From NCBI RefSeq assembly GCF_013167455.1, contig NZ_CP038328.1: a stretch of DNA of 64,000 nt. One strand, written 5' to 3'. The DNA is from Escherichia coli O157:H7. GTDB lineage: Bacteria > Pseudomonadota > Gammaproteobacteria > Enterobacterales > Enterobacteriaceae. Positions 17,567 through 20,038 of this stretch are shown here, in pieces; the first letter of the stretch is position 1; each line of letters starts with the position of its first letter. The notes beneath the pieces were generated by a model that did no database searches, was not told the origin of the DNA, and was given only the letters and a program-made list of their open reading frames with translations. A program made the translations under genes and the position numbers.

Positions 17567-20038
17567 TTAAGAATCAGCCTGACTCGGGATCAGTTTTTGC
17601 CAGATAGCTGAAACGTATTTTGCCTGGTAACGGGCGTCATCAAGTGCATTATGGCGCTCACCTTCGAATGGAATAGCCGTTCTGGCATCGAAGTCTATGG
17701 CTTTCCCCAGCTCAACGATTGTGCGTACATCGCGATCGTTGTAGTAACGCCACGGGCAGGGGCTCCCCTGCCGTTCGTATGAACGGCGCAAAATCGTGTT
17801 GTCGAAGTTGGCTCCATTTCCCCAGACATGAACAAAAAATTCACCGGAGTTTTCGTCGATAAATTCCCGCAATTGTAACAGTGCATCATCTAACGGGATT
17901 TCATCGGTCATAATGGCAGATTGCGCTTCGCGTGATTGTTTAAGCCACCATTTCATGGTGTCCCGATCAATGACTCCGCCAGCAGTATCCAGATCGATAG
18001 TCTTACTAAATTCCGGTCCCATATCTCCGGTTTGCGGATCGAAAAATATTGCACCTATTGAGATAATCGGGGCATCGGGATTTTTTCCCATGGTTTCAAG
18101 ATCGATCATCAGATGAATCCCCGCTCTGCTGGTGGATGTGAGATTATGATGACCGTTCGCCTTAATTAAGGGATCTGACGCCTCGCCAGTTTCACTATCG
18201 CTGGCATGATGCTGATTGCCGCCAGTGTTCTCCTTGTGCTGATGTGCAGTACCTTCCATTTCCTCCGGATCATTTTCCTGAACTTCAGGCTGATTCTCTC
18301 CATCGAATATTTCCTGGTATGTTGCGTCACCCATCACCGCACCACAATCAGGGCAGTTGCCGCCACCGCTCTGACCGCAGGCGGTGCAGATCTTTTCCGG
18401 TTCCTGTTGCACTACTGGTTCAGGTTGTTTCGTTTCTGGCTCGTTTTGTTGCGTATTTGGGCTGTTTTGTTCCGCTTTCTGGTCGTTCTGTTCCGTTTCT
18501 TGCTGGTTCTGGTTCACAGAATCGCGGGTCTGGATCCCCTTAACCCATTTCGGATCATTCGGGTCGCTAATCCCTTCAACAAATTCACCACGTGATACTG
18601 CAAGCAGTTCCTCGGCGTCAGGCTGGCTGATATTGGCTGCCTGCATAATTTTCTTTACTTCGTCAGCGGTAACTTTTACCGGTTCTGGTTGTTCAGAATT
18701 TTGTGCGGTATTTGCATTTTGCGGTAAGCCTGTGTATGTGCCATTTTTTCGGGCAAAATATTCTTCTTTTGTGATTTCAGTAGCCCCGGCAGCCAGCGCC
18801 TTATCCAGACCAGAAAGTTTGTTTGCGCGACCGTATTTTTCGCCATCCTTGTCGGTGAAGAGGAAGTAGAACGGCCCCTCACGTTCTACAGATGGTTCGA
18901 CTTCCACTTTGCATTCGGTTTTTTCGTTGTCTGGAATTGCCGTTTCCACTGCATCAGTTTCTGGTACTGGCGACGAGAGAGTATCAGTTGCGCTCTGATT
19001 TGTTCCTTCATCTTCAAACACGCCCTTTGTAGTCAGGTATTCAGTAATGTATTTGTTCAGTGCCACAGGGTCTTTGTGAATGTCGATCGGACGTTCACGG
19101 ACAAGGCCAAAAATAGTCTGGCGGTCGTAGCGAAGGGCATCAGGCTGTTTGCGCATTGATGCCGAGATACGCTTCCAGTCTTCGCGGCCGTTGTCGATAA
19201 CTTCATTTTTTGCCCAGCGATGGATGCTGCCGTCAATGTTTCCGGCATCCACATCACCAGGCCAGAGAGCGTAGGCCAGTTCGTCATCCAGTGTTTTCCA
19301 TGTCTGCTTGTATTCGCGATGAATGGCAGCAATGACCGGGTTGATTTTTCCTGTTGAATTTTCAGTGTGCTGTTGATTGGCTCTGGCGCGGGCGAGATCA
19401 ACAACAGACGTGTATTTTCCGGCTTCCTTGCGTTCACCTTCGCGACGTTTTTTCCAGATGCGCATCTCTGCCTGAATTTCGGGCCATTTGGCACCAGGCT
19501 TACATTTATGCTTAACCCACCCGATGGCATGCAGCTTAAGCTCCGGATACATAGCGTTAACTTCTGGCATTTTCATCAACGCTTCAACGATATGGCCGTC
19601 GAATGTTGCCATGTCTTCCTGCAACAATTCCTGTGCGCTAATCACCATATCAACAGTGATGTTTTCACATGTGTCGAACTTAACCATGACAGCGTTCTGT
19701 ACTTCAGGGGCCAGGTTGTCAAAAGTGACGTTCATCGGATCGGATTCAGTCTCGACCGGGACAAAGGAAGCAGACGCCTCATCCCAGCGGTTTTCCTGCA
19801 TATATTCAGCATCCCAGGAATCGAGGGCAGGGCGGGGTATACCGGGTTTATCCTCGCAAACAAGAAATTTATAAGCGCAGTCCTGAGCAGCCGGATAATG
19901 TTCCAGGAATTGCCAGTGAAATTTTGCGCGGGCGCGACGTTCATCACCGGCTTCAATGGCAGTGGCTACAGCGACGGCACCTTCTTCCTTTATTGCCTGT
20001 TCGTCCGGAATGGCGGCGCAAATAAAGACTTTACTCAT
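17567..20038 (-). CDS. Large early-region protein with C-terminal DEDDh (DnaQ-like) 3'-5' exonuclease domain; resembles proteins annotated exodeoxyribonuclease VIII in E. coli prophages
   Basis: 823 aa; C-terminus has exonuclease motifs ([25 protein letters not shown]); central [16 protein letters not shown] zinc-ribbon-like motif and a Q/E-rich low-complexity tract. Confidence 0.6.
   Translation of the reverse strand: [823 protein letters not shown]

Follow-up and report, generated by a model that had tools for sequence, protein, structure and literature searches.

A 64,000-nucleotide (nt) stretch of Escherichia coli O157:H7 DNA (contig NZ_CP038328.1; hereafter the window) carries, in the early-left operon of a prophage, an intact gene for an 823-residue exonuclease. 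The homology relationships of this protein identify it as a mosaic within the RecE scaffold family, in which the PD-(D/E)XK nuclease of RecE has been replaced by a DEDDh nuclease of the type found in phage T4 DexA, and they identify the gene as the intact form of the K-12 pseudogene ydfE. The two nuclease forms of the scaffold also differed in their company, in that recT accompanied the PD-(D/E)XK form and not the DEDDh form. The protein is probably a RecT-independent 3'-5' DNA exonuclease, targeted by its scaffold and made upon derepression of the left operon, which would trim or destroy DNA ends alone.

A DEDDh nuclease on a RecE-type scaffold

The C-terminal domain (residues 642-813) matched PF16473, the Rv2179c-like DEDDh 3'-5' exonuclease family, along its whole length (profile positions 2-177 of 177), with an E value of 3.6e-66 and a score of 222.7 bits where 27 would suffice. 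All five DEDDh residues were present, namely D646 and E648 (in IDLETMG), D746 (in NFD), and H796 and D801 (in HNALDD), and they aligned with D7, E9, D119, H186, and D191 of DexA respectively. A reading of the DNA letters made earlier without database searches (the sequence-only reading) had proposed a DnaQ-like C-terminus instead of a lambda-Exo or RecE fold, and the domain search bore this out. T4 DexA (PDB 8KEL/8KEN) was the sole solved relative of the nuclease domain detectable by sequence; the E value of the match to 8kel in the PDB was 2.3e-5 for the single sequence and improved to 3.8e-15 when a 12-sequence profile was used. The PDB sequence search missed Rv2179c even when a family profile was used at E up to 0.1, which places Rv2179c further away than DexA. 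The RNase_T/ISG20-type family PF00929 fell below its cut-off (22.9 versus 24 bits). PADLOC returned a weak generic DEDDh match (E 3.4e-5) and no specific defence-system assignment for the 823-residue protein.

A standard RecE was ruled out. The score for the NCBIfam RecE equivalog NF007259 was 273.8 bits, far under the cut-off of 1269, and the match was confined to residues 452-626. K-12 RecE consists of PF06630 and PF12684, the latter matched at E 4.1e-28, whereas the 823-residue protein had no Pfam match to the PF12684/DUF3799 PD-(D/E)XK domain, no phmmer match to RecE residues 600-866, and no RecT beside it. The standard RecE-type nuclease that the sequence-only reading had set against its own proposal was thus not found. 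The label 'exodeoxyribonuclease VIII' is contradicted by this domain content and is wrong for the gene, and '3'-5' exoribonuclease' is unproven. Both are in public use, together with 'exonuclease', '3'-5' exonuclease', and 'Exodeoxyribonuclease encoded by cryptic prophage CP-933P'.

The homology to RecE lay upstream of the nuclease. BLASTP aligned residues 262-625 with K-12 RecE 278-591 at E 2e-58, and the two proteins were near-identical in a conserved segment ([25 protein letters not shown]), the zinc ribbon, and the acidic tail (RecE residues 453-591). The N-terminal domains looked unrelated by BLAST and there was no Pfam match to PF06630 (Exonuc_VIII); profile-profile comparison with hhalign instead indicated remote homology between them (34 YdfE_N versus 16 RecE-N sequences, probability 93.8%, E 1.8e-7, 172 columns). 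Nucleotide similarity to K-12 recE was limited to nt 1430-1874 of the gene (76.6%), and similarity to a gene of phage 813R8 that combines a RecE-type N-terminus with a DEDDh C-terminus was limited to nt 1360-2472 (93%). Such discrete blocks are expected of a mosaic, and three modules are thus swapped between prophages: the N-terminal domain, a unit made up of middle domain and linker, and the nuclease.

The scaffold was modelled with AlphaFold2 using a 64-sequence alignment. Three confident domains were obtained (residues 1-220, 245-345, and 385-435), with a predicted local distance difference test score (pLDDT) of about 95-97 each, and a separate model of residues 1-440 had a mean pLDDT of 87. 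Residues 500-639 scored below 50. The names YdfE_N (PF27430) and YdfE_C (PF27432) were assigned by way of the precomputed Pfam architecture (PF27430, PF16473, and PF27432) of homologues 89-94% identical, not by direct scoring; these homologues are themselves named 'exonuclease' or '3'-5' exoribonuclease'. Between scaffold and nuclease, the linker holds the conserved segment shared with RecE, a tract rich in Q, E, and N, the zinc ribbon, and the acidic tail. None of the 65 unique copies had a substitution at the ribbon cysteines (C551-x2-C554...C562-x2-C565), and each 40-residue block between residues 481 and 600 contained 16-18 Q, E, N, or D residues; the CxxC...CxxC ribbon and the glutamine-rich tract had both been noticed in the sequence-only reading. 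When the whole model was compared with the PDB by Foldseek, weak matches to DEDDh enzymes were the only ones returned (RNase T at E 6e-4, 3'hExo/ERI, Orn), their weakness being due to the poor modelling of the nuclease domain, and the confident N-terminal domains had no match in the PDB. The modelled scaffold fold offers no functional clue. The equivalent region of RecE was listed as of 'unknown function' in a 2023 review, yet it boosts linear-linear recombination (PMC11611040).

Domain combinations and the RecT partner

An exhaustive HMMER search with residues 1-345, run against 1.84 billion representative proteins, returned only 173 representatives at E up to 0.001. Domain mapping of 64 long relatives showed that all four combinations of N-terminus and nuclease occur. 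The YdfE-type N-terminus was joined to DEDDh (the 823-residue protein and P0124) or to PD-(D/E)XK (P0128, P0221, and P0226), and the RecE-type N-terminus likewise to DEDDh (P0227, P0240, P0132, and others) or to PD-(D/E)XK (RecE and relatives). The middle domain (residues 245-345) was the commonest core, present in 43 long relatives and found with every type of C-terminus.

We then asked which genes accompany each form. Two middle-domain alignments yielded 160 IMG/VR loci, whose nuclease type was classed and whose downstream sequence was searched systematically for RecT-type annealases; the counts are restricted to loci whose downstream sequence spans 900 nt or more. None of the 102 DEDDh-type loci (67 with a YdfE-type and 35 with a RecE-type N-terminus) had RecT downstream, and the genes that followed the exonuclease were xis and int. 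Every PD-(D/E)XK-type locus (13 of 13) had an overlapping or adjacent recT. The split was clean across both N-terminal types; for example, the gene overlapping a YdfE-type/PD-(D/E)XK gene on another contig (L010) matched Pfam RecT at E 2e-36. In the window, tblastn found neither RecT nor a RecE-type PD-(D/E)XK nuclease, and no ORF (open reading frame) of the left operon had a Pfam match to an annealase. The annotation of an identical record lacked bet, exo, gam, and recT, and listed RusA, in the nin region, as the sole other recombination gene. The operon ORFs, the tblastn search, and that annotation together agreed with the earlier statement that no bet/exo/gam-like genes are evident.

Enzymes of the DEDDh family degrade from the 3' end, a polarity opposite to that of RecE, and a 3'-5' exonuclease removes the 3' tails needed for annealing and RecA loading. 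The absence of RecT beside the DEDDh form fits this opposite polarity, since the enzyme would remove the very tails that an annealase needs. Moreover, the contrast between 0 of 102 and 13 of 13 loci argues that the DEDDh form is not one half of a RecET-type two-component recombinase. The description 'recombination-type gene' in the sequence-only reading was therefore apt for the scaffold, which is homologous to that of RecE, and inapt for the nuclease, given its polarity and the missing RecT.

The protein might still act as a functional analogue of RecE, processing ends (3' flaps, blunting) for an unlinked or host partner such as RecA/RecFOR or an annealase of the host or of another prophage. 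The whole scaffold is homologous to that of RecE, the gene sits in the slot that recET occupies in Rac, between kil/dicB and xis, and linear-linear recombination by full-length RecE is efficient only if the N-terminal region is present (PMC11611040). In addition, below-threshold evidence hints that a Rad52-like annealase may be carried by a sister class, described below, of the scaffold family. However, 3'-5' polarity would destroy the 3' tails used for annealing and RecA loading, and neither the 102 loci nor the window offered a RecT, nor the operon ORFs any other annealase. We considered a RecE analogue of this kind quite unlikely, and the RecT-independent exonuclease remained the reading we favoured.

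A third class of scaffold protein was observed among the relatives. Its members have a YdfE-type N-terminus, are 715-789 residues long, and end in a conserved domain of about 270 residues that belongs to neither nuclease type (L011/L012 5001-7927; P0140, P0153, P0130, P0131, P0158, P0147, P0183, P0180, and P0222). This domain contains the motif KKSLTDAxKKALSxLGFSADVxLGLYD, matched Pfam Rad52_Rad22 at sub-threshold level only (E 0.004-0.009), and had no sequence match in the PDB. An overlapping Sipho_Gp157 gene follows the third-class genes, and PHROGs labels those proteins 'exonuclease'. The third class may possibly represent the scaffold fused to a Rad52-like annealase.

Operon, prevalence, and selection

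The window contains a degraded lambdoid prophage of an enterohaemorrhagic E. coli (EHEC)-type strain, integrated beside ynfA. On the minus strand, the genes run in the order repressor-position gene ('hypothetical protein' in the Prokaryotic Genome Annotation Pipeline, PGAP), relBE-like toxin-antitoxin pair, ydfC, dicF, dicB, DUF1482 gene, exonuclease, xis, and int (Table 1). By its gene content and order, the left operon corresponds to the dicB operon that K-12 carries in its Qin prophage. The exonuclease ORF starts with ATG, preceded by a GAGG Shine-Dalgarno sequence, and ends with a stop codon; the gene is 100% identical to a copy in NZ_CP022689.1 (E. coli CDC#03-98; protein WP_000048458.1), in which PGAP chose the same start and gave the product name 'exonuclease'. 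PHROG 2082 matched it end to end. A promoter and terminator scan of 16.4-23.4 kb was uninformative, in that its counts equalled those in shuffled sequence. In K-12, a promoter under DicA repression drives the joint transcription of dicB, ydfD, and ydfE (PMC11430063).

Table 1. Positions of the exonuclease gene, its domains, and adjacent genes in the window
Feature	Coordinates	Strand	Evidence
Integrase pseudogene, at the prophage end by ynfA	16517..17223	-	broken ORFs; PGAP 'frameshifted; incomplete'
Excisionase gene, directly downstream of the exonuclease, no recT between	17243..17494	-	Pfam DUF1233 E 1.6e-31; PGAP
823-residue coding sequence, full-length ydfE-type exonuclease	17567..20038	-	ORF list; identity to WP_000048458.1; PHROG 2082
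Predicted DEDDh 3'-5' exonuclease domain, DexA/Rv2179c-like, residues 642-813	17600..18115	-	PF16473; T4 DexA profile match
RecE-shared linker, residues 473-625	18164..18622	-	BLASTP; NCBIfam RecE model, residues 452-626
Zinc ribbon CxxC-x7-CxxC, residues 551-565	18344..18388	-	motif positions; weak Pfam DZR match
Small beta-hairpin/helix domain, residues 385-435	18734..18886	-	AlphaFold2; common to other Y-type scaffold proteins (Y_346-470)
Helical middle domain (YdfE_C), residues 245-345	19004..19306	-	AlphaFold2; alignment to RecE 278-345
N-terminal YdfE_N domain, residues 1-225, alpha/beta unit then helical bundle	19364..20038	-	AlphaFold2; PF27430; hhalign
DUF1482 protein, ydfD homologue, upstream in the same operon	20131..20322	-	Pfam E 7.8e-25
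dicB, cell-division inhibitor	20319..20507	-	Pfam DicB E 6.2e-37
dicF small RNA	20682..20733	-	Rfam RF00039, 76.7 bits versus gathering score 48

Several further features of the prophage were recorded. Its decay is visible in a partial Q antiterminator gene and in frameshifted integrase, portal, and DUF1627 genes (about 24-64 kb, plus int). At the right end, a stretch of low G+C content (0.386 at 60-62 kb) holds nleL and espN, which encode type III effectors, together with a gogB fragment and IS2. The relB/relE(parE)-type toxin-antitoxin pair (22018-22543, minus strand) lies between the repressor-position gene and the dicB-type operon; in K-12 Qin, relBE is located elsewhere in the prophage. 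A small zinc-ribbon protein, named 'ECs_2282 family putative zinc-binding protein' by PGAP, is encoded antisense within the early-left operon (21381-21587, plus strand), and a 118-residue ORF opposite it (21366-21722, minus strand) had no family match.

The protein was found to be very widespread. Of 5426 complete E. coli genomes, 4787 gave a megablast match to the gene and 3533 (about 65%) had a match covering at least 80% of it, with a median of 2 and a maximum of 10 matching places per genome. A dedicated PHROG and dedicated Pfam families exist for the protein, PGAP has given it a name, and K-12 has a counterpart in ydfE, so that the word 'unusual' in the sequence-only reading was mistaken. 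The protein is among the most widespread uncharacterised E. coli prophage proteins: it is already catalogued and its function is a prediction, literature searches covering ydfE, Rv2179c, and PF16473 having turned up no functional study of the protein.

Selection was measured as the ratio of non-synonymous to synonymous substitution rates (dN/dS, Nei-Gojobori) in 64 unique full-length copies. The ratio was 0.24 for the whole gene, 0.13 for the N-terminal domain, 0.31 for the middle domain, 0.33 for the linker, and 0.22 for the DEDDh domain. The gene is under purifying selection. Among the 65 unique copies, 62-65 retained the catalytic residues, and the ORF was full-length in 67 of 80 close IMG/VR loci, most of the others ending at a contig edge. 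A decaying, functionless remnant kept by chance in a defective prophage would account for the degraded state of the prophage, the truncated K-12 copy, and a minority of clearly frameshifted copies, four in number (L042, L074, L075, and L079). The low dN/dS values, above all in the N-terminal and nuclease domains, the conserved catalytic and zinc-ligand positions, and the predominance of full-length loci speak against it, and in the window the ORF is intact though the int, Q, portal, and DUF1627 genes of the same prophage are broken. We therefore regarded the remnant explanation as extremely unlikely.

Variants of the nuclease domain were also seen. P0230 reads DLKTMG, a Lys replacing the Glu of the ExoI motif, and among loci L013-L092 two E. 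coli copies had N at the position of D646 and two had E at that of D746; these may be inactive variants. P0121 (527 residues) is a deletion variant that joins the middle domain to the DEDDh domain without the ExoI motif, the linker, or the zinc ribbon.

Substrate, role, and known relatives

We next weighed what the nuclease might act on. An exoribonuclease would trim RNA 3' ends, of phage or host transcripts, of the dicF precursor, or of RNA-phage genomes in the manner of TONDO/ISG20-like nucleases. This is suggested by the name of PF16473, taken from the M. tuberculosis exoribonuclease Rv2179c, by the operon being shared with the processed small RNA dicF, and by a 2026 preprint describing ISG20-like DEDDh nucleases with auxiliary domains, encoded by prophages and plasmids, that stop the RNA phages MS2 and Qbeta (PMC13344964). 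On the other side, the sub-threshold PF00929 score and an N-terminal scaffold in common with the DNA enzyme RecE count against an RNA substrate. DNA is favoured because the sole sequence-detectable solved relative, DexA, is a DNA exonuclease, as is EcD, a stand-alone E. coli homologue of DexA (PMC12153337). We judged an exoribonuclease improbable.

The same relatives raised the possibility of an anti-phage nuclease. DexA is reported to switch between a tetramer, which degrades unmodified DNA, and a dimer, which degrades DNA containing 5-hydroxymethylcytosine (5hmC), and EcD is reported to cut 5hmC DNA only and to protect cells from T4, a strategy named 'HREX' (Kang et al., NAR 2025, PMC12153337). 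A prophage nuclease of the HREX type would degrade the 5hmC DNA of superinfecting T-even phages and spare that of the host. The 823-residue protein belongs to the same DEDDh subfamily as DexA by the profile match given above, and its gene stays intact and under purifying selection in degraded prophages. Near-full-length copies occur in about 65% of complete E. coli genomes. W152 and D169 of DexA are implicated in 5hmC recognition, and the tetramer-forming D90 is Ala in EcD, its loss defining the EcD-like dimer state (PMC12153337). At about 25% identity between the nuclease domain and DexA, at which residue equivalences are soft, W152 corresponded to Y766, a position occupied by W, Y, F, V, or R across the family, and D169 to A780, with D782 two residues on. 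Within a low-identity region, D90 aligned with an Asp of the IPLDDA segment at about residue 718, unlike the Ala of EcD. The recognition residues are thus not clearly conserved, and on this soft alignment the domain may have 5hmC specificity or lack it. Moreover, EcD is a short stand-alone protein and not this fusion; it starts with MIDTET, as judged from the cloning primer, and the primer had no match in the fetched loci. A repressor-controlled operon, as in K-12 (PMC11430063), is also a poor fit with constitutive defence. An HREX-type role for the 823-residue protein is accordingly possible but unlikely.

For the RecT-independent DNA exonuclease that we favoured, the following course can be proposed. 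The exonuclease is the last large gene of the early-left operon and, by analogy with the DicA-repressed operon of K-12, the protein would probably be made mainly after derepression or induction. It would shorten DNA from the 3' end by two-metal DEDDh catalysis, with the RecE-like scaffold serving to tether or target the enzyme. It would act alone on DNA ends during phage development or inter-phage conflict, and would not serve as the resection half of a single-strand-annealing recombinase. Four points weigh against this proposal. The role of the protein and of its full-length homologues is predicted from sequence, and the family is named after an exoribonuclease, so an RNA substrate is possible. 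The DEDDh domain was poorly modelled, because few of the aligned sequences carry it. Finally, the census loci are non-independent, many being close E. coli prophages, and the census covered RecT-type annealases.

A broader view is that the scaffold is a nuclease-independent delivery module that would recognise a DNA end or a host factor. Its cargo could be a 5'-3' nuclease partnered by RecT, a DEDDh nuclease of 3'-5' polarity, or possibly an annealase of Rad52-like type fused to it, and the DEDDh form, found in most E. coli genomes, would be a prophage weapon against the DNA ends of competing or superinfecting phages, with a role in defence and not in recombination. We hold this view to be speculative and rather unlikely; if true, it would give the first functional handle on the N-terminal two-thirds of RecE, which have long gone unexplained. 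Since a small E. coli homologue of the nuclease domain was recently reported to be an anti-T4 defence enzyme, the fused form is a reasonable candidate for a role in inter-phage conflict, in EHEC and commensals alike. The N-terminal ~600 residues of RecE emerge as a conserved scaffold that evolution recombines with nucleases of opposite polarity, and PD-(D/E)XK with RecT versus DEDDh without RecT is a testable split between a recombination and a non-recombination form. The domain swap, the co-variation with RecT, and the link to the N-terminus of RecE give the protein a modest interest, the object itself being already catalogued.

Among the closest known systems, the orthologue ydfE of K-12 Qin shares 95% nucleotide identity over nt 1-767 and the operon dicF, dicB, ydfD, and ydfE. 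It differs in that IS2 cuts the K-12 copy after about 255 codons, and the linker and nuclease are gone. The stand-alone DEDDh exonucleases of about 190 residues in mEp460 (mEp460_026) and Yersinia phage YeP2 are 54-60% identical to the C-terminal domain, and in these SfV-like phages the gene likewise lies close to where the early-left operon ends, immediately before the integrase region; these proteins are without the RecE-like scaffold, the linker, and the zinc ribbon. These stand-alone genes (L006 4995-5567 in mEp460 and L007 4995-5567 in YeP2) lie at least one small gene upstream of int, and an RdgC-like gene is found further upstream in YeP2. T4 DexA and EcD, the closest relatives that have been characterised, share the DEDDh subfamily, the five aligned catalytic residues, and phage or prophage origin. 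They are, however, small stand-alone proteins, whereas here the domain forms the C-terminus of an 823-residue scaffold protein and the DexA insertions are missing. Rv2179c shares the Pfam family and the DEDDh fold class, and differs in being an exoribonuclease according to the Pfam description. RecE of Rac is homologous over its first ~590 residues (remotely in the N-terminal domain, and also in the middle domain and the linker with zinc ribbon and acidic tail), occupies the same early-left operon slot upstream of xis and int, and is similar in size (866 versus 823 residues). It carries a PD-(D/E)XK 5'-3' nuclease (PF12684) and is followed by recT, whereas the protein described here carries a predicted DEDDh 3'-5' exonuclease and is followed directly by the excisionase gene.

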